From: an uncultured Candidatus Berkelbacteria bacterium
GTDB lineage: Bacteria > Patescibacteriota > UBA1384 > CAILIB01
Direction of reading: 5' to 3'
Assembly: GCA_903834195.1 (NCBI GenBank)
Contig: CAILIB010000015.1
Coordinates: 53,146 to 117,145, forward strand
Length of the DNA: 64,000 bases
The position numbers and the translations under genes are program-made. The notes beneath the pieces are model-generated. The model searched no databases and was not told the DNA's origin. It saw nothing but the letters and a program-made list of their open reading frames with translations. Positions 21,558 to 64,000 of this stretch are shown here, piece after piece (within the stretch, counting starts at the first letter, position 1; each line of letters opens with the position of its first letter).

Positions 21558-22310
21558 CTATTTTCCTAGCAATTCCCAGACTAGTTGGTGAGCTGACCGT
21601 AGCGTCACTGCTGCGGATTGGCTCTGAAGTAAAGTTGCAGATGGTTCATCAAACTTACTAAAGTGTACAAAGGCTACAAAGTCACCAAAGATTAGTACTT
21701 CCATCTTAAAAGGAAACTTTTCAGAATCTACAAAGCGGTTATGGCGCCAAGGGTCGTCAGGAATAAGCTCTCGTGCACCTGGAGTATCGCTAACCAGTAC
21801 AAAGTTCTCAATGTTCTTTTTATGGCGCTGCGGAACGTACGTATTTACTAACCAATGTTCAAGTTCAGGGTGGATGGCGGCAACATTCACAAAAGAATAG
21901 AAGGGAAGTCCTACTCGAAGAGTTTCTTCATATACCCGTTTAATTCCCTCAACACCACCGTAGAAACGGACTTGAGGCTTATCTTTAGGATCCGTCTGGA
22001 GGGCAAGAAGGAGAGGGAGCGCGTCTGCGGCACGCTTGGCCTTAACTTGTAGATCTTCTACAAGTTGACGTGGATCTGTTGCAGCCAAGTACTTCCGCTT
22101 TCCTAATATAACCTCCTGGAGAATGCCGCGATGTATCATATCGGGAAGGAACTCGCGCATAGAAGTACGCTTAACGCCCGCCTTTTGAGCAAGTGGAAGC
22201 TGTAGTAATGGTCCAGCTTCTAAGGAAGCAAGATATATAGCAATCTCACGGTCAGAAAGCCCAAGAGAAGATAAAGTTGTATGAATTTCTGGTGACGTAT
22301 TCATCGTCAC
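21558..22310 (-). CDS. TrmB-like winged-helix transcriptional regulator, paralog 1
   Basis: LSSLGLSDREIAIYLASLEAGPL...KRTSMREFLPDMIHRGIL wHTH block; C-terminal ...HQLVWELLGK. One of nine paralogs in this window. Confidence 0.75.
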   Translation of the reverse strand: MTMNTSPEIHTTLSSLGLSDREIAIYLASLEAGPLLQLPLAQKAGVKRTSMREFLPDMIHRGILQEVILGKRKYLAATDPRQLVEDLQVKAKRAADALPLLLALQTDPKDKPQVRFYGGVEGIKRVYEETLRVGLPFYSFVNVAAIHPELEHWLVNTYVPQRHKKNIENFVLVSDTPGARELIPDDPWRHNRFVDSEKFPFKMEVLIFGDFVAFVHFSKFDEPSATLLQSQSAAVTLRSAHQLVWELLGK

Positions 22311-22378
22311 TTATTATATATAATAATCGATAATATGTAAACCAACCTGTAAAAATTCAAGAATATATGACGTATATA

Positions 22379-22407
22379 TTGACAATTATTAATGTATATG
22401 CTATGAT
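22379..22407 (+). promoter_or_regulatory. sigma70-type promoter for the radical-SAM-like cargo
   Basis: TTGACA (22379-22384), 17-nt spacer, TATGAT (22402-22407). Confidence 0.6.
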
Positions 22408-22493
22408 TCTCCATCACGATAAAGAGGGCAAGGTCCTCCATATCGGAACATTTAAAACCCGCGGCATCGGCGATATAGATGCAAGGAGGGGTC

Positions 22494-23981
22494 ATGAGTA
22501 CTCTTAGACCTATTTTTGTCCACTGTCGCCCGGATGCCGGTTACGACTTACGTTTTGACACCATTATGATGGTCTCGATGGGAGTAGCTTCCCTCAACCA
22601 AGTGGCTTATCAGATTCTTGGATATCCAGGAGTTGCCATTGATGAGACCTTTATAGGTTCTGGCATTCCTGATGACGGGGAGCGAGCACACCTGTTCGAT
22701 TTGACTTCTGGCTTGGTGGAGGAGTACTTGATTGCTGGCGATCAGCCGGTGATTATGTGTACTTTGCTTTCCTACAATGCCTTAGGGACGGATTCGTTCC
22801 TAAGGCAAATGAAGCACCGCTTCGGTTCTCAGCTTATCACTGGTGTAGGTGGACAGCATATTACTATGTGTTCAGAGGCCTGCACCGCTTGGCGCACCAA
22901 ACCCTATATAGATAGGGTGGCCAACGGAGACGCGGAGGTGACTTTGCAGGAGCTTTTCAATGGTCAACCGTACGCGCAGGGGAAGAAGACCATTATGTCT
23001 TCCGACCACTACGCGCGCCCATATTATGGAGGGTACATTGGCTTGGAGGATCGGCTTCAGGAAATGAGCCGGTTCAACTTGCGTGGTATCAAGAATATGC
23101 GGATGTTGCTCACTGAAAGCGTTCGTGGGTGTTCTTGGGCTGTAGCTTTAGGAAAGGCCTGTGAGATGTGTGCGCTGGATGTGCTCTTACCACTATTCTT
23201 CAGGGGTTTTCCTGAGCATTTCGCCATCGAGGCAGAGTTGGCTGACATGTATGGGGTAAACTGGATATTCGATGTATCGAACCAGTGGCTTCCCGCTCAA
23301 GGGTCAGCTGAACAGGTGAAGTGGCTTGAGGGGTACTGTGCCGCTCGAGTCCGCTACGATGGTCCGGATATCTCCAAGTACGTCTATTTGACAACAAATA
23401 GTGTAACGAAGGAGACGGCTCCGCTGCTTCGGCAGGCGGGGGTCCAGATTGCATATGTAGGAATCGACGGCTGGGATGCTCGAACTCGCCGCGAACTTCA
23501 CAAAACGCAGTACGACCCCTTTAAAATGTTAGACGCAGCTAAATCCTCCGGGCTTTTGGTGCGCACTAGTATGGTGATTGGGTCAGGGATTACTTCGGAG
23601 AATATCCGCGAATTGCCCAAGTTTGTGAAGGCTATCCTGGATGGGTATGGAGACACAGTTCTCTCCTTCGGCACGTTTATGGAGATCATTCTCCCAGGTG
23701 CCGAGAATTGGCGACAGTTCAGGGAGATGTGTTTCTCTGGAGCCAGCGAGCTCCAGCGGGGAAGAGAACTGTATGCATCATTCGATGTGCACGGATTTCT
23801 CGATCTTGACCAGCAGGAAGAGTTGAATTTGTTGAGGATCCAACATACCCAACAGACGTTATTAGACGATATCTTAGCCGCAAAGGCAGAAGCCGAGGAA
23901 TTGATTCTTGCTTCTGAAACCCTTTCGATTGATATCCGTCATGGTGACCATCTGGATGAAGGATCTGATTTTGACCACTAG
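22494..23981 (+). CDS. B12-binding-domain / radical-SAM-like enzyme with atypical Cys motif
   Basis: N-terminal Rossmann-like block (TGVGGQHITM, GDAEVTLQELF) followed by ESVRGC-X9-C-X2-C. ATG 22494 is preceded by AAGGAGGGG. GC content is elevated. Confidence 0.55.
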   Translation: MSTLRPIFVHCRPDAGYDLRFDTIMMVSMGVASLNQVAYQILGYPGVAIDETFIGSGIPDDGERAHLFDLTSGLVEEYLIAGDQPVIMCTLLSYNALGTDSFLRQMKHRFGSQLITGVGGQHITMCSEACTAWRTKPYIDRVANGDAEVTLQELFNGQPYAQGKKTIMSSDHYARPYYGGYIGLEDRLQEMSRFNLRGIKNMRMLLTESVRGCSWAVALGKACEMCALDVLLPLFFRGFPEHFAIEAELADMYGVNWIFDVSNQWLPAQGSAEQVKWLEGYCAARVRYDGPDISKYVYLTTNSVTKETAPLLRQAGVQIAYVGIDGWDARTRRELHKTQYDPFKMLDAAKSSGLLVRTSMVIGSGITSENIRELPKFVKAILDGYGDTVLSFGTFMEIILPGAENWRQFREMCFSGASELQRGRELYASFDVHGFLDLDQQEELNLLRIQHTQQTLLDDILAAKAEAEELILASETLSIDIRHGDHLDEGSDFDH

Positions 23982-24006
23982 GTGTAATAACCTAGTGGTC
24001 TTTTTT
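23973..24006 (+). terminator. rho-independent terminator
   Basis: GACCACTAGG-TGTAATAA-CCTAGTGGTC followed by TTTTTT. The stop codon lies inside the stem. Confidence 0.8.
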
Positions 24007-24273
24007 GTATTCCCTCCGCAAAACTCTATGCATGAGCTTAGGGATGGAGCCAGCCGCTGAATACAGCGGGCAAGCGAAGCTTGACCTGTGTTGATGCCCT
24101 AGGCGTGAGCCTAGGGAGATTCACTTGGGGAATTAATTAGGAAATATATTGTGATTTACCGAGGACCATTATTTAACAGTTTTTATAATATAAAACGATT
24201 TATGCAAATAAATTTCTATAGTGCGAAAATACTATAAGCAAAAGCGCTGTTTATACTATATTGTATACTATGT

Positions 24274-24308: not shown

Positions 24309-24512
24309 ATGCTTCAGAATCGAATAAAAGTACTCAGGGCAGAAAATAATCTTACGCAGGAAGAACTTGCGCGAGCTATAGGTGTGATTAGACAAACAAT
24401 CATCGCTATGGAGCAGAATAAGTATCAACCGTCTGTGGTACTGGCATTAAAACTAGCCAATTACTTCAATGTTGCAGTTGAAGCTGTTTTTCAGCTAAGT
24501 CCGTCCAAATGA
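24309..24512 (+). CDS. XRE-family HTH transcriptional regulator
   Basis: [34 protein letters not shown] Cro/C1-type HTH. The ORF-track TTG start at 24261 lies upstream of the promoter. Confidence 0.8.
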
Positions 24513-24865
24513 ATTCTTCAAACACCAAATTTATTTTTTTACTCGTTCCGTTTGGCTTCGCAGTATATGTGCTTGACGCACTCCTGATGCCGCATATTGG
24601 TATGATACCAACACAGGTAATTTCTGCTGCATTCCTTCTCATTCTTCTTGTTGTTTCACGATTTCTTGATACAAAGGAGCGGGATGAGCGCGAGCGCCTT
24701 GTGCAGTTGCAATCTGATAGTACGGCTCTCTTTACTGTTATTGCTGGCCTATTAGCGGCTACAATTTTCTATCCTCATTCTGATGTGGCGATGGTGTTTT
24801 GGTTTGTACTGGGTCTGGCAGTGGCCGGGCGAATATTTAGTTTTATCTACCATCGGTTTAAGTAG
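24509..24865 (+). CDS. small membrane protein coupled to the XRE regulator
   Basis: 118 aa, 4 TM segments, 4-nt overlap with the XRE gene. Confidence 0.5.
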
Positions 24866-24880
24866 TCTAATGTTTTACCT

Positions 24881-26593
24881 GTGTTTATCCTTATATTTTT
24901 TGCGTTTTTAGCGGGGGTTTCTACCATAGCAGCCCCATGTATTCTCCCTATTCTTCCAGTCGTCTTATCTGCGGGGATTAGTGGTGGAAAGCAGCGTCCA
25001 CTGGGTATTGTTACAGGCTTAATTGCTAGCTTCACTTTTTTTACTCTCAGTCTAAGTTATCTGGCTCGGCAGTTTGGGATTAGTCCTGATATTTTGCGTA
25101 CATCGGCCATCGTTGTATTATTGCTCTTTGGGTTGCTCATGGTTGTTCCACAACTTTTCACACAATTCGAAGTATTTGTAGGTCGAATTATTCCTCAAAA
25201 AACAACCAGAAGTAATCGAACAGACTTCTGGGGTGGAATGCTCGTTGGCTTAAGCTTAGGTTTGGTCTGGACGCCTTGTGTAGGTCCAATTATTGCTTCT
25301 GTTATTACGCTTGCCGCAACAAGTAGTGTCACATTGGGATCGATCTTTATTACATTGGCCTATGCGTTTGGCACGGGCGTCCCGCTCATTATCCTTATTT
25401 ATGGTGGACAGGGTCTAATGAGGCGAGTGAAAGTCTTGAGTAAGAATTCGGGCACCATCCAGAGAATATTCGGCATCATTATGGTACTGACGGCTTTAGG
25501 TATGACCTTCGGAATCGATAGAACACTTCAGGCAGAACTATTAGCAAAGATTCCAAGTTCCTTTTCTGCGGGGCTTACCCAGCAGATAGAGCAGAGCAAT
25601 ACGGTGCAAGATCAGCTTAAACAACTTAAGGGTACTTCTGGGCTCGATACCTCTCATAACACACAAATTCTTGGGGGAGCTTCATCCGGGCTACCAGTAC
25701 TAGGGAAAGCACCTGAATTTACCGGAATTAGTCACTGGCTCAATAGTGACCCCCTCACGTTGGAGTCACTAAAGGGCAAAGTTGTACTCGTCGATTTCTG
25801 GACGTATTCCTGCATAAACTGTATTCGAACTTTACCACATGTGACTAGTTGGTATGATTCGTATAAAGACCAAGGATTTGTGGTGATTGGGGTACATGCG
25901 CCTGAGTTTGCCTTTGAAAAGGAAACGAACAATGTTGCGGATGCAATTAAGCAGTTTGGTATTCACTACCCGGTTGCCCAAGATAATGACCTAGCTACAT
26001 GGAGTGCATATAACAATCAATATTGGCCAGCCGAGTATCTTATTGATGCCCAGGGAAATGTACGTGAAACAAACTTCGGTGAAGGCGAGTATGACACGAC
26101 CGAAAAAAATATCAGAGCGCTCTTACAAGAGGCAAAAGGTATGACAACCGTGTTGCCTACTGCACCAAGTGCGGCAGACCTTACTCCAACTGGTCAAATA
26201 TCACCAGAGACGTACCTTGGAACAGATCGGCGGCTGGGATTTGAGGATTCAGCATCAACTTTAGGAGGTAACCAGTGGACACTCTCAGGAGGTTGGGATA
26301 TCGGATCGCAATATATTACGACAACTGATACTCAAGCATCTTTATCCTATAGTTTTACTGCCAAGGATGTGTATTTAGTATTGAATCCCTCAACAAGTGG
26401 AGTAGGTACCGTTGAGGTGCAACTTGATGGTAAAACGGTGAATGGTGTTGGGACTGACGCGGTAAATGGAGTTATTACCGTGGATACAGATCGCTTATAC
26501 CATCTGGTTCATTTGGATGGCGATGAATCTCATGTTTTAACGCTCAGATTTAAGTCAACGGGAATTAAGGCCTTTGCCTTCACCTTTGGGTGA
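24881..26593 (+). CDS. DipZ-like thiol:disulfide interchange protein (CcdA/DsbD membrane domain + thioredoxin-like domain + C-terminal beta domain)
   Basis: CcdA-type TM core with CILPILP and WTPCVGP motifs. TlpA/ResA-like WTYSCINC active site. Confidence 0.8.
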   Translation: MFILIFFAFLAGVSTIAAPCILPILPVVLSAGISGGKQRPLGIVTGLIASFTFFTLSLSYLARQFGISPDILRTSAIVVLLLFGLLMVVPQLFTQFEVFVGRIIPQKTTRSNRTDFWGGMLVGLSLGLVWTPCVGPIIASVITLAATSSVTLGSIFITLAYAFGTGVPLIILIYGGQGLMRRVKVLSKNSGTIQRIFGIIMVLTALGMTFGIDRTLQAELLAKIPSSFSAGLTQQIEQSNTVQDQLKQLKGTSGLDTSHNTQILGGASSGLPVLGKAPEFTGISHWLNSDPLTLESLKGKVVLVDFWTYSCINCIRTLPHVTSWYDSYKDQGFVVIGVHAPEFAFEKETNNVADAIKQFGIHYPVAQDNDLATWSAYNNQYWPAEYLIDAQGNVRETNFGEGEYDTTEKNIRALLQEAKGMTTVLPTAPSAADLTPTGQISPETYLGTDRRLGFEDSASTLGGNQWTLSGGWDIGSQYITTTDTQASLSYSFTAKDVYLVLNPSTSGVGTVEVQLDGKTVNGVGTDAVNGVITVDTDRLYHLVHLDGDESHVLTLRFKSTGIKAFAFTFG

Positions 26594-26625
26594 TATGTAC
26601 TACGTTAAAAGTAAATCTAGAAATT

Positions 26626-27003
26626 ATGAATCACCTTACTCCAGAAGAAGAAGCTATAATTGTTCACAAGGGAACCGAAGCTCCATTTAGAGGAGAGTAT
26701 GACAAGTTCTATAAAGATGGGATATATGTCTGTAAGCGTTGCGATACACCATTATTCAGCTCAAAAACTAAGTTTGATGCAGGGTGTGGGTGGCCGGCAT
26801 TTGATGATCATATCCCAGGTTCAGTAACGCAGATTACTGATTCAGATGGGTATCGGACAGAAATTGTGTGCGCTACTTGTAATGCGCATTTAGGGTATGT
26901 TTTTACTGGTGAACAGATGACGGAAAAGAATACTCGACATTGTGTTAATTCAATTTCAATCAAGTTTATTCCAGCTGAAGTTTTATTGAGCTTCATTATA
27001 TAA
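26626..27003 (+). CDS. msrB: peptide-methionine (R)-S-oxide reductase
   Basis: CKRCDTPLF, GCGWPAF, CATCNAHLGYVF and RHCVNS motifs. Start refined to ATG 26626. Confidence 0.9.
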   Translation: MNHLTPEEEAIIVHKGTEAPFRGEYDKFYKDGIYVCKRCDTPLFSSKTKFDAGCGWPAFDDHIPGSVTQITDSDGYRTEIVCATCNAHLGYVFTGEQMTEKNTRHCVNSISIKFIPAEVLLSFII

Positions 27004-27019
27004 AATACTTTACCTTTGT

Positions 27020-27619
27020 ATGCGTATATCACCACCAGGAGTAACAATTTTCGGCGTTTGTGTATTTATTGTCCTGGTTGGATTTCTTCATATCTATAAA
27101 CCTACTATTAACCCGATTCATCAGACGCTTTCGCAGTATGCAAATTATCCACGAGGTGTGTTATTTGACATAGGAATAATTGCAGTAGGAATTGGAGCTT
27201 CTAGTCTGGCATTTGCTTTAAAGGTAGCACATCCAACTATTTCCTCGGTTGGGTTAGGATTGATAATTACGTTTGCTGTTACCTCACTTTTGGTAGGATT
27301 TTTTCATACGTCTCCAGAATATGCTAGTTCTGGCGGGGTAGCTTTATTTGGCAAAATTCATATTGTAGCTGCGACACTAGGTTTTATCTCTTTGGCTATG
27401 GCGGCAATTATTGTTAATAAGTCACTCATAACTAGCTATCCATCATCTGCTCATTCAATCTCCTTTTTTATGGCAGCAATGGTGATAGGTGATTTAGTAT
27501 TAGCCCTCACAGTTTTGATGAGTAATCAGATTGCTATTATTGGAATTATTGAGCGATTGGCTTTTGCGAGTTTTCTCGGTTGGTTATGTGTAGTAGCGTA
27601 TGTGCTGTTGCCAGGTTAG
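27020..27619 (+). CDS. polytopic membrane protein (DUF998-like)
   Basis: 199 aa, about 6 TM helices. Confidence 0.45.
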   Translation: MRISPPGVTIFGVCVFIVLVGFLHIYKPTINPIHQTLSQYANYPRGVLFDIGIIAVGIGASSLAFALKVAHPTISSVGLGLIITFAVTSLLVGFFHTSPEYASSGGVALFGKIHIVAATLGFISLAMAAIIVNKSLITSYPSSAHSISFFMAAMVIGDLVLALTVLMSNQIAIIGIIERLAFASFLGWLCVVAYVLLPG

Positions 27620-27721: not shown

Positions 27722-28462
27722 TTAGATCTCCTCAGCAATCTCCCAAAGTATTTCAAACACTTGTCGCATGGTTGTGTAGATTGAGGTAGATTCGATAACC
27801 ACACCGTGCATTTCACTTCCTCCGTATGTGAGGAGAGCAACCTTATTACCCCACAGAGCTGCCTCGCTAGGCATGTTCCATTCAGGTTTGATAAACCGCT
27901 GCTCATGGCGGCCATCTTTGTAGAGCTTGCCATACTTTTTCATCTCGGGAAGTCGTTTGACTATTTCTCGAATTTTAATCTTATGTCGGATGAGTTGTTT
28001 GGTGAAATCGTAATAATCTTGGTAATTCTTCACCCAATCCTCTCCAGATCCAAAGAAAAGTACTTCACGTGCCTCAGTGAGAAACTCTTGATGAATACTA
28101 TCAATTCCCTCTTTTCCTACAAAGAAGCGTACCCGAGGTTTGTCTGGACTACCTTGGTAGAGCGCTTCAAGGAGGGGAAGCTGTTCTTCAAACTGCTTGA
28201 GTCGTTCGGAGAGAATTTTTTGGATACGACGAGGGGGTACGGCACTATAACGATAGCGACCATTGCGAGATAGAGAAGTAATCAAGCCTTTCTCATCAAG
28301 CGTTCGCAAGATGTCATAGCAGTGAGTCCGGGGAATTCCAGCCTCGACAGCAATCTTTGTGGCACCAGATTCTCCTAACGCCAAAGCTGCTTTATATACG
28401 AGAGCCTCTTTCTCAGTAAACCCGAATTTTTGAAGAAGAATTATCAAGTCTTTTTCGTCCAT
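27722..28462 (-). CDS. TrmB-like regulator, paralog 2
   Basis: LQKFGFTEKEALVYKAALALGESGATKIAVEAGIPRTHCYDILRTLDEKGLI; ends FEILWEIAEEI. Confidence 0.75.
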   Translation of the reverse strand: MDEKDLIILLQKFGFTEKEALVYKAALALGESGATKIAVEAGIPRTHCYDILRTLDEKGLITSLSRNGRYRYSAVPPRRIQKILSERLKQFEEQLPLLEALYQGSPDKPRVRFFVGKEGIDSIHQEFLTEAREVLFFGSGEDWVKNYQDYYDFTKQLIRHKIKIREIVKRLPEMKKYGKLYKDGRHEQRFIKPEWNMPSEAALWGNKVALLTYGGSEMHGVVIESTSIYTTMRQVFEILWEIAEEI

Positions 28463-28580: not shown

Positions 28581-28943
28581 ATGAAAAATCAAACACAAAC
28601 AGCGATAATCTGTGTGGCTCTATTAATTGGATGCTTCACATGTCTACAAATTGGCGTGCAACTAGGTGTTGCTCAGGGGCGAGAGGAAGCTCTGCACGTT
28701 GTGCAGCAAGGAGAAGAAATTAAGAAGTTGAGTTGGAAAGATCACCAACTTACAGAATTACCTAAATGGGGAGGATGGCAAATGGTCTATGAAGGCCGTT
28801 ATGGCATTCCGTCTCTGATTTTAACCGATGCCCGGACCGGCATGGAGGTGGGAAAAGTTGATTCTTTGGGGGTGTATTACAAAAAAGGGGATTATTATTA
28901 TCCTGCCAACATGCAGTCGATGTACAAAAAGTTCAAAAAGTAA
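28581..28943 (+). CDS. small secreted/membrane-anchored protein, unknown function
   Basis: 120 aa with an N-terminal hydrophobic segment. GGAGAAAG SD-like sequence upstream. Confidence 0.45.
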   Translation: MKNQTQTAIICVALLIGCFTCLQIGVQLGVAQGREEALHVVQQGEEIKKLSWKDHQLTELPKWGGWQMVYEGRYGIPSLILTDARTGMEVGKVDSLGVYYKKGDYYYPANMQSMYKKFKK

Positions 28944-28952
28944 GTCTTTGAA

Positions 28953-28986
28953 GGCCACTAGGTATTCCTAGTGGCCATATTTTTTG
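28953..28986 (+). terminator. rho-independent terminator
   Basis: GGCCACTAGG-TATT-CCTAGTGGCC followed by ATATTTTTTG. Confidence 0.8.
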
Positions 28987-29032: not shown

Positions 29033-29287
29033 TTATTTAGCAAGCTTCATTTTAGTGACCTTGTACGGTACACCGTCCTTATACGTCGTCCAGTCTCCCA
29101 CTGGTTGACCATTTTCCCAGTATCCAGAACGTTTTAATTTGCCGTCATTGCGATACCACTCCCAATATCCGACAGGTTGGTCGTCTTTAACCTTCCCTTT
29201 GGACCAAATCACTCCATTGGCATGATACTTAATCAGGACATCGCCCTGCATTTCTGAGCTTTTCGCGTCGATTTTCTTTGCAGTCAT
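29033..29287 (-). CDS. MORN-repeat protein (YwqK-like)
   Basis: Repeated G-x-W-x-x-Y-x-x-(N/D)G units (PVGYWEWYRNDGKL, PVGDWTTYKDG). Confidence 0.65.
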   Translation of the reverse strand: MTAKKIDAKSSEMQGDVLIKYHANGVIWSKGKVKDDQPVGYWEWYRNDGKLKRSGYWENGQPVGDWTTYKDGVPYKVTKMKLAK

Positions 29288-29697
29288 GAATTTGAAGTTA
29301 ATAGTTTGCTTTTATACCTTACCAGGAGAAACAGGAAGTATCCTGCCACAAAAAGGTTAAGATACCCTATTCCAAACACTATTCGTAAGGTTAAACTTTG
29401 GTTTCCAAGATGATAGAACACACCGAATCCTTGGGCAATCTCGCTAATTACGGTGAAAAGGTAGAATAAGAACTCAAGCGTGAGAAAACCTGATAGGAGT
29501 CTATACCCAAGTAGCTGCCCTTTTAGGAGGAGAAAATAGCCTGCTGCAAATGGTAGAAACACTAATACCAAGAGTAGTATTCCACGAAAATTGGTCAGAA
29601 AACTGAATCCATATTGGTGGATTGAATAAGGTATCTGAGCAATAAAATTGGCTAAGATTATTCCTGACAGGGTATGGATCTGACTTCGCAATTTCAT
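29284..29697 (-). CDS. membrane protein, unknown function
   Basis: 137 aa, 4 TM helices. 4-nt overlap with the downstream MORN gene. Confidence 0.5.
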   Translation of the reverse strand: MKLRSQIHTLSGIILANFIAQIPYSIHQYGFSFLTNFRGILLLVLVFLPFAAGYFLLLKGQLLGYRLLSGFLTLEFLFYLFTVISEIAQGFGVFYHLGNQSLTLRIVFGIGYLNLFVAGYFLFLLVRYKSKLLTSNS

Positions 29698-29826: not shown

Positions 29827-30165
29827 CTACTTTAACTGAATATCATACGCCACACAGAGACGTTCAATTGCTTTTACATATTCAGGGGCAACTCCCAGCC
29901 AATATTCGCGTAAGCCGACGCGTTCAGGGTTCTTGGTGGTATGTAGCTGTATATCGTGAAGGGCGTTTTTGTATTCACGAAGGATTACTTCGTTAGGATC
30001 TCCGGTCCCACTGAGAAAGGCATCAATTCCTTCAAGGCTCGAGCCTTTCTTGCCAGATTCCTTGATGGTAATAAGCGCAGCGACATCCTGGCGTACATTA
30101 CCAGAAGGGGTGAAGTGCTTGAAGCCCTCCAATTCATTTTTCCAATAGGTGAGGTCTAATTGCAT
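29827..30165 (-). CDS. hypothetical protein, co-directional with and 10 nt downstream of TrmB paralog 3
   Basis: ATG at 30165 (MQLDLTYW). The longer ORF-track start at 30210 would overlap the regulator gene. Confidence 0.45.
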   Translation of the reverse strand: MQLDLTYWKNELEGFKHFTPSGNVRQDVAALITIKESGKKGSSLEGIDAFLSGTGDPNEVILREYKNALHDIQLHTTKNPERVGLREYWLGVAPEYVKAIERLCVAYDIQLK

Positions 30166-30175: not shown

Positions 30176-30934
30176 TTATATCTGCTTCGCTTGTTCCCAC
30201 AATTCCTCAAACCAATTTTGCATGCTCGTAGCGTAATCCTGCGACGTAGTTACCACGCCAAAACTTTCAGCAGCTGTGGTGGTCACCACTACTGTATTTC
30301 CATAAATCAGAATATTCGCTGGGCTTTGAAATCTTGAAGGAGCATAGCGTACATCACGTTGGCCGTCTTCGCCTGGGGCGTAGATTGTATCTTTCGGCTC
30401 CTGATTTCTCACACGAATAGCTCGCGTCCAAATCTTTGCCTCTGCCCGACGCTTTACCCAATCTTTTAGAAACCGTGCCCCAATAGCCTCCTCTATCTGC
30501 TGAGTTGAGCCAACATAGCAGATCTCCGTAGGGTGCACTAATAACATTTCCTCATAGATATCTTGCAACTCTTCACCCTTAAAGATGCGAACTTTGGGCT
30601 GTGTAGGCGTGTGCTCATAGAGCCGATTCAATTCTGGTACCAACTCGGCAAACGACTGACTATTCTCTTTGGCTTGCTCTTCTTTCTCTTTGAACTTGGT
30701 GAGAATAGTACGCGGCGGGTAGGGAAGATAGTGTTTACGCCCTCGACGTTCCAAAATTTCAATTAACCCCAGTTCATCTAATTTTTCTAAAAGGTAGGCA
30801 ACAGAAGTACGAGGCAACCCAACTTTCTCCGCAATGGGAACAATATTTGATTCGCCAAGTTCAAGGGAAGCCAGGTAGGTACGGGCTTCTTTTTCTCCTA
30901 ATCCAAGTTTTTTGAGGTATTCCGGCAAATCCAT
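30176..30934 (-). CDS. TrmB-like regulator, paralog 3
   Basis: MDLPEYLKKLGLGEKEARTYLASLELG...; ends FEELWEQAKQI. The start is set at ATG 30934 because the predicted promoter (30968-30996) lies inside the longer ORF. Confidence 0.75.
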   Translation of the reverse strand: MDLPEYLKKLGLGEKEARTYLASLELGESNIVPIAEKVGLPRTSVAYLLEKLDELGLIEILERRGRKHYLPYPPRTILTKFKEKEEQAKENSQSFAELVPELNRLYEHTPTQPKVRIFKGEELQDIYEEMLLVHPTEICYVGSTQQIEEAIGARFLKDWVKRRAEAKIWTRAIRVRNQEPKDTIYAPGEDGQRDVRYAPSRFQSPANILIYGNTVVVTTTAAESFGVVTTSQDYATSMQNWFEELWEQAKQI

Positions 30935-58052: not shown

Positions 58053-58811
58053 TTATTTCTTTGCACTATCCCAAATCTCCATAAACTGTTTCCGGGCAAA
58101 GAAAGCAAGCTCCTTAGACTGAACCACAATTAAATTTGTAGCATTACCTTGAATAGTTTGATAGCAAACCTGATCATTCCAAATCCATTGCTGTACTTTT
58201 GGGCTAAGTGATTGTGACGTATAGCGAGTCTCTGTAACCGACCAGCCAACTTCCTCGTTATGTTCTTCCGACTTTTTACCTTCAGGAAGCAGACAGAGTA
58301 CGTTAATACCGCGTTTTACCTGTTGCTCCATGTAATTGGTGTAGAAGTCTTTGTCGAGTTTATACCAACTCTCCAAATTTCCACTAGAGTACACATAAAA
58401 GTCATCACCAGGTTTAGCTTTCTCTAAAAAGTATCGGTACCAATCGCGCATCGAGAGAGGTGAGTCGTAAATAGTTACGAGCGGAACTTCACTCGGCGTG
58501 TTTTGCATGTTTGTAAGAGCGGGGACTACTGCATCGAGGCGGGCTTTTAAATCTTCAACCAAAACAAATAATTGGCTTGGATGAAGTGCCTGGTACAGTG
58601 TGCGTTTTGCGTAACGCACTTCTTTGATGAGTCCGCGATCGAGGAGTTCGGGTAACAAAAGATAGATTGCCTGGCGACTTGTGTTTAATGTACGCGCCAT
58701 TTGGGCCACATTCGCGGTGCCAGCCTGCAAAAACTCTAAGAAGAGTTTTGTTTGGCTCCGGCTTATTCCTAGCCGGTTTAGCGTTTCGTAAATAACTTTT
58801 GTATCTTCCAT
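58053..58811 (-). CDS. TrmB-like regulator, paralog 8 (closest to paralog 4)
   Basis: MEDTKVIYETLNRLGISRSQTKLFLEFLQAGTANVAQMARTLNTSRQAIYLLLPELLDRGLIKEV; ends FMEIWDSAKK. Start chosen by alignment with paralog 4 (the ORF-track GTG at 58832 is possible). Confidence 0.75.
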   Translation of the reverse strand: MEDTKVIYETLNRLGISRSQTKLFLEFLQAGTANVAQMARTLNTSRQAIYLLLPELLDRGLIKEVRYAKRTLYQALHPSQLFVLVEDLKARLDAVVPALTNMQNTPSEVPLVTIYDSPLSMRDWYRYFLEKAKPGDDFYVYSSGNLESWYKLDKDFYTNYMEQQVKRGINVLCLLPEGKKSEEHNEEVGWSVTETRYTSQSLSPKVQQWIWNDQVCYQTIQGNATNLIVVQSKELAFFARKQFMEIWDSAKK

Positions 58812-58951
58812 GTGTACATAATAGTATGACACATTTACGACTCTTAATCAAGTGAAACTGAAAAATTGACAATACACCGCTTGTTAGTTTTTACGATTTA
58901 TTATATTGTTACGCCTGTCTGAAAGCTCGTTATGAGCTCTAGGAGGAACAA

Positions 58952-59647
58952 ATGAACAATACGAATTACGGTGATATCGTCAACGGCTTCGCGGCCCATA
59001 AGAAAAATAAAGAGTCCATCGATTGGCGCCTTGGGTACACGCCTGTACTGCATGAGCTTGGCAATGTTATGGGTCAGAAGATTTTCGATCTCGGTTGTGG
59101 CCCTGCGAACTTCAGTGCTGGACTTACTCAATTAGGCGCACATGTGATCGGCGTTGATTCTGATAGTACGGTTATTGCAGAGGCTCGTGTGGTTGACCCA
59201 TTAGGTGACTACAGAGTGAGTCAAGGGTGTTTAGTCGATGAATGTGCCGGTGTGAAAATCGATATAATCATTGCCACCTTTTCTCTCTGTGCCATGGCAG
59301 ATTGTGAATTGCATCCTGTCTTGCATGATTTACGCAGAATGCTCAAAACCGGAGGAAAGTTCATCATTCTTGAGCCAAATCAGGAGAAATCAAATGGTGT
59401 GAAGTATGCAGATATACACTATCACTATAAGGAGGGAGTAAAGACGGGTGATTTGGTTGATGTGACATTAGGTGATCAACCGATTCCACCAGACATTTAT
59501 CGCACACATGCTGACTATCGAGAGTTGCTGGAGGAGGCTGGTTTCATTATTGATGCAATGACTGAGCCCGTGCCGGATCGAGCTGAAGAGGGTGAGAGAG
59601 AATTGGAGTTAAAATATCCGCCGTTTCTCCTCATCACGTGCCATTAA
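58952..59647 (+). CDS. class I SAM-dependent methyltransferase (paralog of 36449-37210)
   Basis: IFDLGCGPANF motif I. AGGAGGAACAA precedes the ATG. Confidence 0.8.
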   Translation: MNNTNYGDIVNGFAAHKKNKESIDWRLGYTPVLHELGNVMGQKIFDLGCGPANFSAGLTQLGAHVIGVDSDSTVIAEARVVDPLGDYRVSQGCLVDECAGVKIDIIIATFSLCAMADCELHPVLHDLRRMLKTGGKFIILEPNQEKSNGVKYADIHYHYKEGVKTGDLVDVTLGDQPIPPDIYRTHADYRELLEEAGFIIDAMTEPVPDRAEEGERELELKYPPFLLITCH

Positions 59648-59737: not shown

Positions 59738-60304
59738 ATGAACAAACAACATCCGTTTATGGATTGGGCTAAAGAAGTGCTAGGAGATAATCTTGAGGCT
59801 TTGGCGCTCATGGACAATCGCAAGGAGCACATTACAAAGGCGTTCCGCGAAGTATTGTCAGGGTACGAAACTGACCCAACTACAGTTTTGAAAAAAGTTG
59901 CAAAAACCGATTCTTTCTCTGGCCTCATTTGTGAGGCGGGGATTAAGTATCAATCAATGTGTCGGCATCACTTTTTGCCGTTCTCTGGAACGGTGGGAAT
60001 TGTGTACGAACCGGGTGAAGACTTGTTTGGCTTAGGAAAAGTGGCACGACTGGTGCAGGTTTACGCCAAACGTCTTCAATTTCAGGAGAAATTGTCTCAG
60101 GAGATTGCTGATGAATTTATGCGTGCAGGTGCAAAGGGCGTGTACGTTGAAACCCGGGCAAAACATATGTGTATGGGACATCGTGGCCCAAATGATCCTA
60201 ATGCAGTTGCAGTTGTGACTGTGGCACTCGGAACACTCAAAGGGTATGATGCTGAGCATACGGCTCACCAAATGATTACCTACTCACATGGGCATGACTG
60301 TTAA
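59738..60304 (+). CDS. folE: GTP cyclohydrolase I (FolE type I-like)
   Basis: SMCRHHFLPFSG (compare CEHHLLPF), GLGKVARLVQVYAKRLQFQEKL and HMCMGHRG (compare HYCVKARG) align with FolE catalytic blocks. Confidence 0.8.
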   Translation: MNKQHPFMDWAKEVLGDNLEALALMDNRKEHITKAFREVLSGYETDPTTVLKKVAKTDSFSGLICEAGIKYQSMCRHHFLPFSGTVGIVYEPGEDLFGLGKVARLVQVYAKRLQFQEKLSQEIADEFMRAGAKGVYVETRAKHMCMGHRGPNDPNAVAVVTVALGTLKGYDAEHTAHQMITYSHGHDC

Positions 60305-60743
60305 TAGATCTGCTGTCGAAGCGCTTTTAGAAAGTGAAATTGTCCTAACCCTTGCCACTTCAGGTGGCGAGGGTGTTGGGGCATGTGATCTTTTATTTAT
60401 TCATAATGAAGATCTGACGCTGTTTTGGAAGTCGGCGACACAATCGCGCCATTCGTTGAATATAGCTGAAGGTTCCAGAGTGGCAGGTACAGTTACATCA
60501 CGATTAAAAAATGGCTGCGGTGTGCAAGTGGTTGGATTTGCCAAACCTACGGACATGCAGATTGAATCTCTAGAACAAAAACTGAGTGAAAAACGACAAA
60601 GGTTTTATGGCGCGAAAGTGGCTCGTCGCGAAGAAGAAAAAGAAGATGGTCGTGTTTGGTATGAGTTAAAACCAAAGTGTTATTATTATATGGATGAAGA
60701 AACGCTGGGGTATGAGCGGGTGGAAATTCGTATACATAGGTAA
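60288..60743 (+). CDS. pyridoxamine 5'-phosphate oxidase-like FMN-binding (split-barrel) protein
   Basis: VLTLATSGGEG...LFWKSATQSRHSLNI pattern. Overlaps the folE 3' end by 17 nt (alternative ATG 60294). Confidence 0.6.
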   Translation: MGMTVNRSAVEALLESEIVLTLATSGGEGVGACDLLFIHNEDLTLFWKSATQSRHSLNIAEGSRVAGTVTSRLKNGCGVQVVGFAKPTDMQIESLEQKLSEKRQRFYGAKVARREEEKEDGRVWYELKPKCYYYMDEETLGYERVEIRIHR

Positions 60744-60745
60744 AT

Positions 60746-61105
60746 ATGACCACAAAAAACTATCTCGGCACTGTAGTTTCTGAAAGTCTGAACGATGCAC
60801 GGTTTTTAAATACCCTCCATGTTACCGGAGGGTGGATTAGTAATGACGATACTCCAGAAGAGCAATGGCATCTTTATACAGTGCTTATGAATGAAGAGGA
60901 TATACAGCGATTATCCGAGCATATTAAGGAAGGGTGGTATGCCCACTTTTGGAATGAAAAGCGTCATATTATCGCCATATTTAGTGGCAAAATGTTTGAA
61001 TTCGAGTACGACAAGAAAGAATCATGGCATGAAGCCGTTCAATACGGATTATTTGTAGGTATTCCATTGGAGCAGTTAGATTTTGTAATCGAGACAAATC
61101 GTTAA
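60746..61105 (+). CDS. hypothetical protein (last gene of the folE operon)
   Basis: 119-aa ORF starting 2 nt after the upstream stop. Confidence 0.4.
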   Translation: MTTKNYLGTVVSESLNDARFLNTLHVTGGWISNDDTPEEQWHLYTVLMNEEDIQRLSEHIKEGWYAHFWNEKRHIIAIFSGKMFEFEYDKKESWHEAVQYGLFVGIPLEQLDFVIETNR

Positions 61106-62109
61106 AACGATTTGGAAAAACCAGCAGAGAATACTAGCTTGTGATTATTGATATCACCAAGACCAAAGTTCAAATTATAATCACGCATAATCTTACCGGT
61201 CTTTGGATCAGTTAAACTGATTTGCAGATTAGCAAACGGGCTGGCAGAACCTCTAAAGGCGCTTAAACCGGTAGCAAGAGACTGAAGACAATTGTCACGC
61301 CATTCGTAGCCAGCATTGAGTCTTAGGCCAACACTTCCAATTGTGGCAGTGATTGAACCGGTAACTTTAGCGCTGAGGATATATCCTTTGAAGGACGGAC
61401 CATAGTTGTAACTATATGTTGCATCGGTGTTAGAGCTCTTTAAGATGCCGACACTTCCGCCAGAGCCACCAAAGGAGTCGTTAATTCTGTGGAAGGCGCC
61501 ATTTATTATGCCATAGGCTGTGTCATTTGAGACTCCCGTTCCGTTACTCAAATCGCCATAAATCTGATCTGCCAGGGATGCTGCAGCGGGGTTGTACAGT
61601 TTGTAGAGTGCGTCAATAATCTGAGCGTCACTTGCAGTAACGCTGAGTGTTGTAAAATACTGGTTTAGCGCAGAAGTATTAAAAGCTGTTCCAAGGTTAA
61701 TCTTGAAGTTTGCAGTTACTGTTTGAGTTCCAACCAATGCCTTTGCGGTGGCGGCTAGGTTTGCTGCCGAAATTTTATCGGATACATCTGGAGGATAGTT
61801 GGTGACATCTTGATGTTCAGGCTCTAAGCAAACTTCTGCTTGGGTAGGTGATGGGTTAGGCTTAACTATAGATGGATCACTTCCTGAACCTGGTTTGAGA
61901 GGGGTTGTATTTGAGCTAAACCCATTGATCCGTGCCGAGTCCGCATCATACTGTGCTTGTAACTTGGCTAACTCAGTAGATGAACTATCAGTTGTACTTG
62001 AAATGTACGACGCGCTTGATGGCTGATCCTGTTTATCACGCCAATAAATTCCACCCGAAACTCCAATGAGTATTGCGGCTACAAGTCCAAGAATATAGGT
62101 ACGTTGCAT
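61102..62109 (-). CDS. membrane-anchored/secreted protein, unknown function
   Basis: 335 aa with an N-terminal TM (ILGLVAAILIGVSGGIYW) and a Ser/Thr/Gly-rich beta-type ectodomain. Confidence 0.4.
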   Translation of the reverse strand: MQRTYILGLVAAILIGVSGGIYWRDKQDQPSSASYISSTTDSSSTELAKLQAQYDADSARINGFSSNTTPLKPGSGSDPSIVKPNPSPTQAEVCLEPEHQDVTNYPPDVSDKISAANLAATAKALVGTQTVTANFKINLGTAFNTSALNQYFTTLSVTASDAQIIDALYKLYNPAAASLADQIYGDLSNGTGVSNDTAYGIINGAFHRINDSFGGSGGSVGILKSSNTDATYSYNYGPSFKGYILSAKVTGSITATIGSVGLRLNAGYEWRDNCLQSLATGLSAFRGSASPFANLQISLTDPKTGKIMRDYNLNFGLGDINNHKLVFSAGFSKSF

Positions 62110-62331
62110 GAGAGCAAATTATATATGTATTTCTAGTGTACAGTATTTGATATCTGCGTATAAGAGTGATATCTTACGTTCAGTATGTGTAAACCGCTTA
62201 CCACGCTATTTCTGTGTGATCCAGGATTCTCCAAGGAGACAGCCTTTTAGAATTCAATAAACGTATCTAACAAGGTGTGTCTCAAATATTCAGCGTTAGA
62301 GCTGATTTTTTATTACACTAATTGGAGGTTT

Positions 62332-62562
62332 ATGAATACGGATGTGGAAATTGATACAGAAGCTGAATTGTTCCGGGTTTCTGCATATTGTCAGGGAAAT
62401 TGGTTGGTTGGTACTAATATTAAAACGAGTCACATTCTATTTTATGCGATTGGAGTTGGAGTGAGTTGTTCATTTTTACTCCTACCAGACACAATTGGCA
62501 TTTCATTTTTTACGATGAGTCTTCTTGTATGCTCAATCACATGTGCAACTTTTGTATCATAG
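62332..62562 (+). CDS. small membrane protein
   Basis: ATG 62332 follows GGAGG. 76 aa, two hydrophobic segments. Confidence 0.35.
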   Translation: MNTDVEIDTEAELFRVSAYCQGNWLVGTNIKTSHILFYAIGVGVSCSFLLLPDTIGISFFTMSLLVCSITCATFVS

Positions 62563-62563
62563 G

Positions 62564-62809
62564 ATGGAATCAATCAAACTTCCTTCAAAAAAATTTCACC
62601 CTATCTGGAGAGTGTGCATTGAGGTGGCATTTATTGCATTTTTATTTTACTGCAACCTGTTAATGGGTGAGTTTACTCGTGCAAATGGAGTCGATAAGAG
62701 TTTTATTGTAGCGCTGCAAGATATCTTCACGGTTACAAATTTTTGTATTGCTATTATTTCGGGTCTTGTTGGGTATGTTTTCTTCGAGTATTTGCGGGCA
62801 AAACTGTAG
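62564..62809 (+). CDS. small membrane protein
   Basis: ATG 62564 lies 1 nt after the upstream TAG. 81 aa, two TM helices. Confidence 0.35.
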   Translation: MESIKLPSKKFHPIWRVCIEVAFIAFLFYCNLLMGEFTRANGVDKSFIVALQDIFTVTNFCIAIISGLVGYVFFEYLRAKL

Positions 62810-62880
62810 TACTAAACATACAGGTTCTTTTTGATAAAAGGAGTCTGTATGTTTAGCACGAGCTAAGCAGAGGAGCACCC

Positions 62881-63585
62881 GTGAAAAATGTATTTAAAGG
62901 ACTTGCTATCGTCCTATTTGCTATTACGCTGACTTGTTCAGGCTTTGGACAACAGACAATCTTCAATGTACCTTCGGCAGACATAACGCCAAAGGGAATG
63001 ACGTACCTTGAGACTGAAGGCCAGTTTCGTGCAAGTGGCCCAGGATCCTACTATTACAGCAGTAATTTCTTTGCACGAGGACTCGGTGGTAATACCGAAC
63101 TCGACACGAGCCTGTACGGACTGAGTAGTCCTCGATCAGGAAATGTGACTATGGGAGTTGGCTTTAAAACAGCCTTCCCATTGTTTGCAAAACGATATGC
63201 CGCAGAAGCATTTCAACTTACAGTTGGAGAGCAGGTGTTGCTTTCCGCTCAAGGGGAGGGTGCAGGATACTGGGCATACGCACATCTGAGCGGAAAAGTT
63301 CCACATACAGGCACTCGCCTGACAGCTGGGCTGAGCAGAGGGACAAAGCAACTCTTTGGAGTCGACACGACAGTGGTTATTGCAGGGTTTGAGCAGCCAC
63401 TTACTCCGCAATTGAATATCATTTCCGACTGGTACTCGGGAGCAAACTCTCTGGGTTTCTCGACGACTGGGTTCAGTTGGACGTTTTCCAAGGTGGGCAC
63501 GTTCTATCTTGGATATCAAATTCCCAACAATAGCTCGGCTGCTGGCCGATCCGGAATCACTTCGGAACTGTCATTTCAGTTCTAG
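62881..63585 (+). CDS. outer-membrane-type beta-barrel-like protein
   Basis: Signal peptide, about 10 amphipathic beta-strand-like segments (VTMGVGFKTAF, TRLTAGLSRG, FSTTGFSWTF, GTFYLGYQIP) and a C-terminal ...ITSELSFQF ending in Phe. Confidence 0.45.
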   Translation: MKNVFKGLAIVLFAITLTCSGFGQQTIFNVPSADITPKGMTYLETEGQFRASGPGSYYYSSNFFARGLGGNTELDTSLYGLSSPRSGNVTMGVGFKTAFPLFAKRYAAEAFQLTVGEQVLLSAQGEGAGYWAYAHLSGKVPHTGTRLTAGLSRGTKQLFGVDTTVVIAGFEQPLTPQLNIISDWYSGANSLGFSTTGFSWTFSKVGTFYLGYQIPNNSSAAGRSGITSELSFQF

Positions 63586-63593
63586 TCTTGCAA

Positions 63594-63630
63594 CTCCTAG
63601 CTTGATCCATGATCAGCTAGGAGCTTTTTA
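63594..63630. terminator. bidirectional hairpin between convergent genes
   Basis: CTCCTAGCT-N12-AGCTAGGAG followed by CTTTTTA. Confidence 0.75.
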
Positions 63631-63631
63631 G

Positions 63632-64000
63632 TTAGCCTTGGCCAGCTTTTATCGGCTCACTCATCTCCCACAACATCTCATAAAACGTTCCCATTACTTC
63701 ATACAATTCTTGACTCTCAATCATGATGGCGAAGCCTTCATTTTTTGAACTAAAAAAACCGACTTTACCTGTATCGTACAAACCCACACCCATTGAGGAT
63801 TTGTATTGAGGTGGTGTAATGCGCACGGTTAAGAGGTTTTTGGTGCTTTGAGCAGAGGTTGGAAAAGGCACTGCTTTGTCTCGGATGCGCAATGAGCGTC
63901 CTAATACACCAGCGGCAACCCGTTTGTGATTAATATCGGCCATGGTCTCGACACCAATCATTTCCATCAAATCTTTTGTCGGAAGTAGGAAGGCGGTTTT
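63632..64000 (-). CDS. TrmB-like regulator, paralog 9 (C-terminal part; 5' end outside window)
   Basis: The frame is open to the window edge. The C-terminus FYEMLWEMSEP matches the F-x2-[LIVM]-W ending of the other eight paralogs. Confidence 0.55.
   Translation of the reverse strand, partial: KTAFLLPTKDLMEMIGVETMADINHKRVAAGVLGRSLRIRDKAVPFPTSAQSTKNLLTVRITPPQYKSSMGVGLYDTGKVGFFSSKNEGFAIMIESQELYEVMGTFYEMLWEMSEPIKAGQG

Follow-up and report, generated by a model that had tools for sequence, protein, structure and literature searches.

A dense array of TrmB-like regulators in a Patescibacteria chromosome, with paralog-specific predicted operators and a probable role as local repressors

A stretch of 64,000 nucleotides from an uncultured Candidatus Berkelbacteria bacterium (contig CAILIB010000015.1, positions 53,146 to 117,145; hereafter the window) carries a series of paralogous TrmB-like regulators, each lying back to back with a different neighbour. 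What do so many related regulators, gathered in one place, control, and by what means? An earlier note on this DNA had listed nine such open reading frames (ORFs; R1 to R9). All nine are present, eight of them complete and R9 partial in the window (Table 1). A profile hidden Markov model built on the nine ORFs was run against the six-frame ORFs of at least 50 aa over the whole window. It recovered the same nine and no others, with E values of 1e-87 to 1e-97 for the complete R1-R8 and 7e-26 for the partial R9; in positions 1-21557, this search found no TrmB-like paralog. The array continues beyond the window. For comparison, we used loci or contigs from other genomes or samples (L001-L016). One of them, L012, is an independent contig from another study that is 100% identical to positions 60702-64000 and extends 7.5 kb further. 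On L012, R9 is a complete gene of 251 aa with a divergent 271-aa neighbour, so the truncation noted earlier is that of the window, and two more paralogs (254 and 256 aa) follow R9 in tandem. At least eleven TrmB-like paralogs are found within about 50 kb. As argued below, we consider, with a probability of roughly 0.7, that these proteins are private, autoregulated repressors of themselves and of their divergent neighbour, and that small accessory units, each under its own regulation, have gathered in this part of a Patescibacteria chromosome.

The nature of the proteins was examined at the level of sequence and of fold. PF01978, the TrmB helix-turn-helix (HTH) family, was found in all eight complete proteins. 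Seven of them scored above the Pfam gathering score (34.7-64.2 bits, cut-off 25.6) and R1 scored 23.8 bits; R9 was not scorable in the window, its N-terminus lying beyond the window end. In contrast, PF11495, the TrmB effector domain that the earlier note had named together with PF01978, gave no match at E <= 0.01 in the regulators. The NCBIfam TrmB/TrmBL1-type equivalogs were not reached either (at most 53 bits for cut-offs of 500-650). A profile of 54 family members matched Pyrococcus furiosus TrmB (3QPH) with E = 3e-12 over residues 4-142, where the match stopped, and aligned with TrmBL2 (5BOX and related entries) over the full length. Invariant positions across the 54 members include G13, G58, P95, L97, P108 and the C-terminal W248. 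The C-terminal ending first written F-x2-[LIVM]-W was thus confirmed as F-x3-W, with the tryptophan invariant and F244 present in 85% of the members. In the recognition helix, Y48 (R5 numbering) is found in 94% of the members and aligns with the tyrosine of the VYD motif of 3QPH; the conserved recognition-helix tyrosine of P. furiosus TrmB is Y50 (PMC4158304).

An AlphaFold model of R5 (pLDDT 91) was compared with known structures using Foldseek. The best match was TrmBL2 (5BQT/5BPD, E = 4e-14, sequence identity 15-18%), the next was TrmB, followed by proteins of the PLD/NucT fold. The C-terminal domain of R5 gave a target-normalised TM-score of 0.65 with NucT (6EHI). It has the PLD-like fold of TrmBL2, without the subdomain that makes most of the sugar contacts in TrmB. 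The modelled architecture is therefore a winged helix, a long coiled-coil helix and a PLD-like domain, that is, the short form represented by TrmBL2 and TrmBL3, which is devoid of the sugar-binding subdomain of about 70 residues of TrmB (PMC4158304). Overall, Pfam, family-profile and fold matches agree in showing that the proteins are related to one another and are of TrmB type, as had been supposed.

Two further functions were considered for these proteins. None of the 11 paralogs has the HxK(x)4D catalytic motif, and the alignment of the 54 sequences contains neither a conserved His/Lys pair nor a conserved cysteine. Because the motif and a conserved cysteine are absent, nuclease or PLD activity and OxsR-like thiol sensing are both unlikely, and these two possibilities were rejected.

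The family is large. At E <= 1e-30, the search returned 4,992 representatives of 50%-identity clusters, and 13,077 at E <= 1e-10. Named members come from Parcubacteria, Jacksonbacteria, Berkelbacteria, Saccharibacteria and unclassified Patescibacteria, and orthologs were found in metagenome-assembled genomes labelled Berkelbacteria, Saccharibacteria, Parcubacteria, Jacksonbacteria or 'Patescibacteria group'. In public records the family appears as 'TrmB' or 'helix-turn-helix domain-containing'. The same search also retrieved proteins of 500-1079 aa (P0079-P0094 and others) with 3-7 matched stretches; their length steps of about 135 aa suggest one full TrmB-like unit followed by repeated partial units.

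To what are these regulators connected? The divergent layout, a shared spacer with dyads overlapping promoter elements, was found in the array, and all eight complete regulators have a divergent neighbour. As described earlier, the spacers are AT-rich in all eight cases; they measure 118-415 bp and have a GC content of 0.23-0.39, as compared to about 0.44 for the window. The sigma70-like promoters reported in these spacers require some qualification. In scans of 21.4-41.4 kb and of 44-64 kb, the total number of promoter-like matches was not above the shuffled expectation, whereas the near-consensus ones concentrate in the TrmB spacers. In the first scan, the six matches of 11-12 out of 12 positions all lie in the spacers of R1, R3 and R5, one per strand in each. 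In the second, two of the three such matches are in the R7 spacer, the remaining one being located ahead of the Fur gene. Together, 8/9 of these promoter matches are located within TrmB spacers. The claim that cargo units end in hairpin terminators held for at least five of them, strong hairpin-plus-T terminators being visible after the cargo of R1, R2, R3, R5 and R7; the hairpin following the R6 cargo is weaker and bidirectional.

In R1, R4, R5, R6 and R7, the mRNAs of the regulators are probably leaderless or carry a very short leader, because the regulator's own -10 hexamer is only 6-21 nt from the ATG and a Shine-Dalgarno sequence is not visible. For R1, the ORF stands and the ATG at 22304 is a more likely start than the GTG at 22310 first proposed; the R1 mRNA is probably leaderless, since its promoter ends 8 nt before this ATG. 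Several cargo genes do have a Shine-Dalgarno sequence.

The spacers also contain paralog-specific palindromes (Table 1). To follow their conservation, the R5 spacer was aligned with those of six orthologs (91, 89, 79, 68, 67 and 51% protein identity). The O1 palindrome of R5 is kept in 7/7 aligned spacers, L010 having a single mismatch in one arm, whereas the 6 bp between the arms vary; the window holds no other exact match to it. The O2 site of R5 is recognisable in five to six of the seven aligned spacers, two of these having a different cargo gene. With R7, the arms of O1 and O2 are identical in L016, which carries a 49% ortholog, although the spacer between them is different in O1 and has one base changed in O2; R7 O1 is also unique in the window. 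In the 50% ortholog of R6 (L008_4620), the site reads GACGT-AAATA-ACGTC, a symmetric double change that keeps the dyad. The 21-nt block abutting R8 is conserved in five loci (the window, L013, L014, L015 and L003), and a block preceding the R3 ATG (30939-30958) is conserved in 49-50% orthologs (L009_1180 and L010_11533). In the window, the palindrome of each paralog occurs only in its own spacer. On the protein side, the recognition helix K43-L51 is invariant among R5 orthologs, and only R44 and Y48 persist across paralogs. Overall, palindromes that are specific to a paralog, conserved in its orthologs and confined to its own spacer argue for the one-regulator-one-cargo logic proposed in the earlier note.

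From the sequence data, we propose the following mechanism. Each TrmB-like protein, with its winged helix, coiled coil and non-catalytic PLD-like domain, would act as a dimeric, sequence-specific repressor recognising its own palindrome of 15-19 bp. One copy of the palindrome, on the regulator's promoter, transcription start or short leader, would lead to negative autoregulation. In at least three cassettes, those of R4, R5 and R7, the -35 hexamer of the cargo promoter doubles as one arm of a second copy; because of this overlap, a bound dimer would block RNA polymerase at that promoter. The targets would be mostly small-molecule-modifying enzymes, above all S-adenosylmethionine (SAM) methyltransferases, and in one case an RNA resembling transfer-messenger RNA (tmRNA). 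As a conjecture, a ligand or signal received by the PLD-like domain would presumably bring about derepression. Homology, fold, the layout of promoters and terminators, the conserved paralog-specific palindromes and the recurrence of cassettes elsewhere are observed, whereas DNA binding at the palindromes, repression rather than activation, and any effector are inferences.

Several points weigh against this view. The spacer of R5 O2 is 1 bp shorter than that of O1. No second site was found for R6, the second site of R8 is unclear, and none was identified for R1-R3, the spacers of which were not searched systematically. R2, R9 and R11 are without a convincing palindrome. Single palindromes are only marginally better than those of shuffled AT-rich spacers (p = 0.02-0.13); because this single-palindrome shuffle test is weak, the operator argument rests on ortholog conservation. 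An activator, too, could make use of a site over the -35 region. Finally, TrmBL2, which is nearest in structure, is a chromatin protein that binds without specificity and for which no ligand is known (PMC4158304).

The position of the second sites leads us to consider that the regulators might be activators of the divergent cargo, or dual regulators like TrmBL1, the site at -35 being an activator site. Counted from the predicted cargo start, the centres of these second sites fall near -38 to -42, where some bacterial activators do bind. Moreover, TrmBL1 and Tgr act as both repressors and activators (PMC4158304). Against activation, the cargo promoters are near-consensus (10-12 of 12 matches, 17-bp spacing) and should be strong unaided, the operator arm is the -35 hexamer itself and would be occluded by a bound dimer, and autorepression would account for the sites located at the promoter or transcription start of the regulators themselves. 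On these grounds, we hold activation to be unlikely.

The resemblance to TrmBL2 raises another possibility, in which the regulators would be nucleoid or silencing proteins coating AT-rich, possibly horizontally acquired DNA in a non-specific manner. Indeed, an archaeal chromatin protein is their closest match both in structure and in full-length sequence (PMC4158304), and the spacers are AT-rich. Such a role is nevertheless difficult to reconcile with eleven paralogs that are 20-40% identical and have divergent recognition helices, or with distinct, conserved palindromes restricted to each regulator's own spacer. TrmBL2 occurs as a single, highly conserved protein in each genome (PMC4158304), and the NCBIfam TrmBL2 equivalog (NF041141) gave at most 23.9 bits here, far from its cut-off of 530. 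We regard non-specific silencing as very unlikely, and return to private repressors.

How old are the units, and do they travel as such? Pairwise identity between paralogs is 20-40% in both domains, with the exception of R4 and R8 (62%). The cargo methyltransferases of R4 and R8 share 35% identity over 204 aa, pointing to a single, ancient duplication of the entire cassette. R5 has orthologs elsewhere at 51-91% identity, R8 at 62-76%, and R3, R6 and R7 at about 50%. R8 is the most populous subfamily, with 43 of the 78 proteins recovered; a scan of a genome collection with the alignment of R5 orthologs gave three loci. Because the paralogs are only 20-40% identical and several have their own orthologs elsewhere, the array appears to be a collection of old subfamilies gathered in one place rather than the product of a recent burst of tandem duplication. 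The description 'repeatedly duplicated' was therefore misleading, since the paralogs are at 20-40% identity as compared to 50-91% with their own orthologs, and only R4/R8 look co-duplicated.

Recurrence of the cassettes was then compared between genomes. The unit made of R5, methyltransferase and FkbO-like gene recurs in L010/L006 (67% regulator identity), and the R5 ortholog of L001 (79%) is accompanied by FkbO. In the closest relatives, L009 (91%) and L003 (89%), the divergent neighbours of the R5 orthologs are unrelated and the surrounding gene order differs. R8 and its methyltransferase (41-48% identical) recur in L013-L015, that is, in three genomes and three unrelated neighbourhoods, mostly with no other family members nearby. 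The methyltransferase is the conserved partner of R8 orthologs; a PNPOx gene is additionally present in one locus only. R7 and the tmRNA-like unit recur in L016. Clusters of two or three family genes are present in most related loci, and the commonest module there is a regulator/methyltransferase pair. The unit of conservation thus seems to consist of the regulator, the spacer and the first cargo gene. These data bear out the modular character attributed to the array: the R5, R8 and R7 cassettes are found in other genomes, R5 and R8 in different surroundings. Since the neighbourhoods of R5 and R8 differ between genomes, the gene order is not universally conserved among relatives.

Other origins of the array were also weighed: the contig may be a chimeric product of metagenome assembly, or the region may be a mobile or defence island or an array of integron-like cassettes. 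The sequence is indeed a metagenome-assembled contig, and its gene content looks accessory and varies among relatives. However, the 129-kb contig that holds the window, on record in ENA and NCBI, was reported from two samples, and the independent L012 matches it at 100% over 3.3 kb and carries the array further. Pfam matches include no integrase, there is no step change in GC content, and no shared repeats such as integron-like attC sites or REP elements were found at unit boundaries. The flank consists of housekeeping genes (DnaE, Glu/Gln-tRNA synthetase, tRNA-Gln). This explanation is therefore extremely unlikely. A defence role was rejected, PADLOC giving only weak winged-helix matches to Csa3/CasR. 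By an estimate from coordinates, about 45% of the 42 kb is taken up by cassettes; the units in between have other regulators (ArsR, Fur), or no regulator was found in them.

The predicted target of R7, a tmRNA-like gene without a conserved tag reading frame, appears to be the most unusual of the array. On 52318-52453, the Rfam model RF00023 scored 66.3 bits (gathering score 47). A copy of 114 nt in L016 scored 68.6 bits and stands in the same divergent arrangement with the R7 ortholog. At the gathering threshold, Rfam found the tmRNA in the whole-window and 1.2-kb searches and missed it in a 361-nt slice, and ARAGORN called neither copy. The window copy has 45 nt in place of the internal tmRNA region of about 278 nt; in L016, 17 nt replace about 269 nt, and no stop codon is present in any frame. 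As read from the sequence, both copies keep the G3:U70 pair; they also keep the T-arm and the CCA end. The tRNA-like domain is thus recognised in the two copies, whereas the resume codon, tag reading frame, stop and pseudoknots of an mRNA-like domain are not. Between the window and L016, the stretch of about 90 nt from the promoter to the GGGG 5′ end is about as conserved as the tRNA-like domain; the 107-aa ORF located downstream is not conserved at L016. A metagenome scan with the 5′ 21-mer of the tmRNA gave one canonical 364-nt tmRNA, four chance matches and no further mini-tmRNA.

The association of an R7-type regulator with a tag-less mini-tmRNA in two genomes, at 49% regulator identity, is probably the item of widest outside interest. 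A broader reading would be that the TrmBL2 architecture, so far known only from an archaeal chromatin protein, has diversified into the main private, sequence-specific switches of the lineage, R7, one of the conserved members, controlling a non-tagging tmRNA-like RNA of 114-136 nt with a conserved 90-nt leader and an alanine-accepting tRNA-like domain; we regard it as tentative and rather doubtful. If true, a bacterium would possess a regulated, non-tagging form of ribosome rescue, or would have put the tmRNA scaffold to a new use.

The earlier annotations of the other cargo genes mostly held, including the methyltransferases, the PP2C phosphatase, the FkbO/Hyg5 chorismatase-like protein, the short-chain dehydrogenase, the GTP cyclohydrolase I and the PNPOx-like protein, as did the tmRNA-like RNA. 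The R1 cargo was an exception. It had been called a B12/radical-SAM-like enzyme, but its Radical_SAM match is sub-threshold (25 bits, cut-off 29.5), it has no CxxxCxxC motif, and no PDB relative was found by sequence. The R5 methyltransferase matches NovO and CouO, two aromatic C-methyltransferases, with E = 8e-21 and 2.5e-18, respectively, and the R5 cargo may form a small aromatic-acid tailoring pair, as its sequence relatives suggest. The R8 methyltransferase has generic relatives only.

Table 1. Coordinates of the regulators, cargo genes, predicted promoters, candidate operators and neighbouring units (window positions unless a locus is named; ab, abutting)
Feature	Position	Strand	Description
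R1	21558-22304	-	TrmB-like regulator, 248 aa from ATG at 22304
R1 own promoter	22341-22313		TTTACA-17-TATAAT, 8 nt before ATG
R1 cargo promoter	22379-22407		TTGACA-17-TATGAT
R1 cargo	22479-24000	+	500-aa protein, weak radical-SAM-like match; terminator 23973-24000
R2	27722-28462	-	TrmB-like regulator, 246 aa
R2 cargo	28581-28976	+	120-aa protein, hydrophobic N-terminus; terminator 28953-28976
R3	30176-30934	-	TrmB-like regulator, 252 aa
ORFs after R3	29827-30165 and 29284-29697		small, co-directional with R3
R3 spacer promoter	31017-31045		12/12 consensus match
R3 cargo	31109-31818	+	146-aa protein, no assigned function; terminator 31792-31818
R4	35558-36313	-	TrmB-like regulator, 251 aa, 62% identical to R8
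R4 O1	36315-36333		TGTCA-N9-TGACA, ab R4 ATG
R4 O2	36370-36388		TATCA-N9-TGACA, right arm is cargo -35 hexamer
R4 cargo	36434-38080	+	SAM methyltransferase 36434-37210; PP2C phosphatase 37361-38080
R5	38119-38883	-	TrmB-like regulator, 254 aa, structure-modelled
R5 O1	38886-38903		perfect palindrome TGTCTA-N6-TAGACA, between R5 -10 hexamer and ATG
R5 O2	38951-38967		TGTCTA-N5-TTGACA, imperfect, right arm is cargo -35 hexamer
R5 cargo	39014-41263	+	NovO/CouO-like C-methyltransferase 39014-39862; FkbO/Hyg5 chorismatase-like 40057-41235; terminator 41239-41263
R6 cargo	45951-46697	-	divergent short-chain dehydrogenase; promoter 46869-46842; hairpin 45945-45930
R6 O1	46933-46947		GTCGT-AAATA-ACGAC, 4 nt upstream of R6 ATG
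R6	46952-47707	+	TrmB-like regulator
R6 co-directional followers	47781-48215 and 48215-48526	+	AHSA1/SRPBCC protein and ArsR-type HTH protein
R7	51288-52091	-	TrmB-like regulator, 267 aa
R7 own promoter	52126-52098		TTGAAA-17-TATAAT, 6 nt before ATG
R7 O1	52121-52138		TTTCAA-N6-TTGAAA, over R7's own -35 hexamer
R7 O2	52186-52203		ATTCAA-N6-TTGACA, over -35 hexamer of tmRNA-like gene
R7 cargo	52227-52453	+	conserved leader of about 90 nt 52227-52317; 136-nt tmRNA-like RNA 52318-52453
ORF after tmRNA-like gene	52507-52867	+	107 aa, no assigned function; terminator 52843-52867
tmRNA-like gene of L016	L016 2704-2910	-	leader and tmRNA-like gene
R8	58053-58811	-	TrmB-like regulator, 252 aa
R8 conserved block	58812-58832		GTGTCATACTATTATGTACAC (R8 direction), 21 nt, ab R8 ATG
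R8 cargo	58952-59647 and 59738-60304	+	methyltransferase and GTP cyclohydrolase I
R8 cargo, continued	60288-60743 and 60746-61105	+	PNPOx-like protein and 119-aa ORF, no assigned function
R9	63632-64000	-	C-terminal 122 aa of 251-aa TrmB-like regulator
Left third of window			ordinary chromosome: DnaE, Glu/Gln-tRNA synthetase, NDK, family-4 glycosyltransferase, tRNA-Gln, then surface proteins and sortase
Thiol-redox operon	24509-27619		between cassettes
ABC exporter	41345-45790		between cassettes
ArsR+AHSA1 and Fur units			between cassettes

Some additional sequence elements were observed in the region. The hexamer CAGGTT, in the direction of the regulator, is found 33-46 nt upstream of the ATG in R1, R4, R5 and R6 (AACCTG on the + strand at 22344, 36358 and 38916; CAGGTT on the + strand at 46906), where about 0.3 occurrences are expected by chance. 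Near-matches are present in R2, in R8 and in the upstream regions of two related loci (L008_4620 and L010_11533), and the position of the hexamer relative to the -35 and -10 hexamers varies among regulators. The terminators of the R1 and R2 cargo share a near-identical stem, (G/A)CCACTAGG...CCTAGTGG(C/T)C, behind which no wider repeat family was found. At 13469-13542, a 74-nt stretch that is 89% identical to L003 14636-14708 includes a long and perfect hairpin (AAAAGAAATAGACCATAC...GTATGGTCTATTTCTTTT), which is in all likelihood a terminator; on this stretch, Rfam gave only sub-threshold matches to microRNA-like hairpins.

A structured non-coding element of about 92 nt (39905-39996, + strand) lies between the two genes of the R5 cargo. 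It is 80-83% conserved at L009 9349-9441 (- strand) and L003 9247-9337 (- strand), where it is preceded by a different gene and followed by an intrinsic terminator. RNAalifold gave a three-way junction with 5 compensatory pairs. Neither Rfam, even at E <= 5, nor one metagenome scan gave a match to the element, a candidate for a riboswitch or small RNA. In the window and in L013-L015, a conserved CGCCTGTCT opens the 5′ leader of the methyltransferase of the R8 cargo (58890-58951, + strand). Downstream of it is a short hairpin, the stem of which differs in sequence between genomes and still pairs (AGCTCGTTATGAGCT in the window and AGCTGGAGTCCAGCT in L013), and which may be a 5′ stabilising or regulatory stem-loop.

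Two separate pairs of an ArsR-type HTH gene and an AHSA1/SRPBCC gene were found in the region, one in the window (47781-48526), directly downstream of R6, and the other on L012 (4896-6110). These pairs form a second recurring small regulator/cargo module.

What do these observations mean for the organisms concerned? Genomes of the candidate phyla radiation are tiny, and we found little published on their gene regulation. Full-text literature searches gave no paper linking TrmB to Patescibacteria, to the candidate phyla radiation or to Saccharibacteria, and a broader search on transcription factors of the candidate phyla radiation gave nothing relevant. The cargo hints that reduced organisms keep small, inducible chemistry modules, for instance the NovO/CouO-like C-methyltransferase with the chorismatase-like enzyme, or the methyltransferase with GTP cyclohydrolase I and a flavin-type enzyme. 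With their short, distinct predicted palindromes, the regulators could serve as a ready-made set of orthogonal repressor/operator pairs.

Among known systems, TrmBL2 of Thermococcales (PF0496/TK0471; 5BOX, 5BPD, 5BQT) is of the same length class (about 250-264 aa) and has the same composition, a TrmB winged helix, a coiled coil and a PLD-like domain without sugar-binding subdomain. TrmBL2 is however a single, highly conserved and abundant chromatin protein, and its binding to coding as well as intergenic DNA is not sequence-specific (PMC4158304), whereas here many divergent paralogs each have their own conserved palindrome beside their own gene. TrmB and TrmBL1 (Tgr) of Thermococcales and TrmB of Halobacterium share the DNA-binding domain, the recognition tyrosine and palindromic operators. 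TrmB and TrmBL1 act by promoter occlusion, and autoregulation was proposed for Tgr (PMC4158304). In contrast to the present regulators, they are proteins of about 340 aa with a PF11495 effector domain, the C-terminal subdomain of which binds sugars and is absent here. They also govern sugar transport and glycolysis regulons, some of them large, whereas the regulators of the array appear to control one adjacent unit each. OxsR of Haloferax volcanii and MmtA1 of Mycobacterium smegmatis, which share the PF01978 winged helix, are specific transcription factors outside sugar metabolism (bioRxiv 10.1101/2022.03.05.483106; bioRxiv 10.1101/2025.04.03.647061). Both are limited to the winged helix, with a cysteine as the sensor in OxsR, whereas the regulators described here have a PLD-like domain and no conserved cysteine.

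The closest likeness in wiring is found in bacteria. A divergent, autoregulated repressor beside its target is the commonest layout for local bacterial regulators. In TetR/tetA and MarR-type pairs, back-to-back promoters are separated by a short spacer, palindromic operators cover promoter elements, and negative autoregulation is combined with control of the neighbour. These pairs share the wiring of the array; the protein family and the fold of the sensor domain differ. By analogy, the wiring would be that of a classic bacterial divergent, autoregulated local repressor, and is in this respect ordinary. The statement that no described system is organised this way was therefore too strong, the more so as the family is already annotated as TrmB in genomes of the candidate phyla radiation. 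To our knowledge, TetR- or MarR-type pairs are not usually found eleven per 50 kb in a genome of about 1 Mb, the size expected for Patescibacteria. What is new lies elsewhere: a TrmBL2 architecture apparently used as specific switches in bacteria, a density of at least eleven TrmB-type regulators in 50 kb of a small genome, a set of distinct predicted operators, and a putative tag-less mini-tmRNA as one of the conserved targets.

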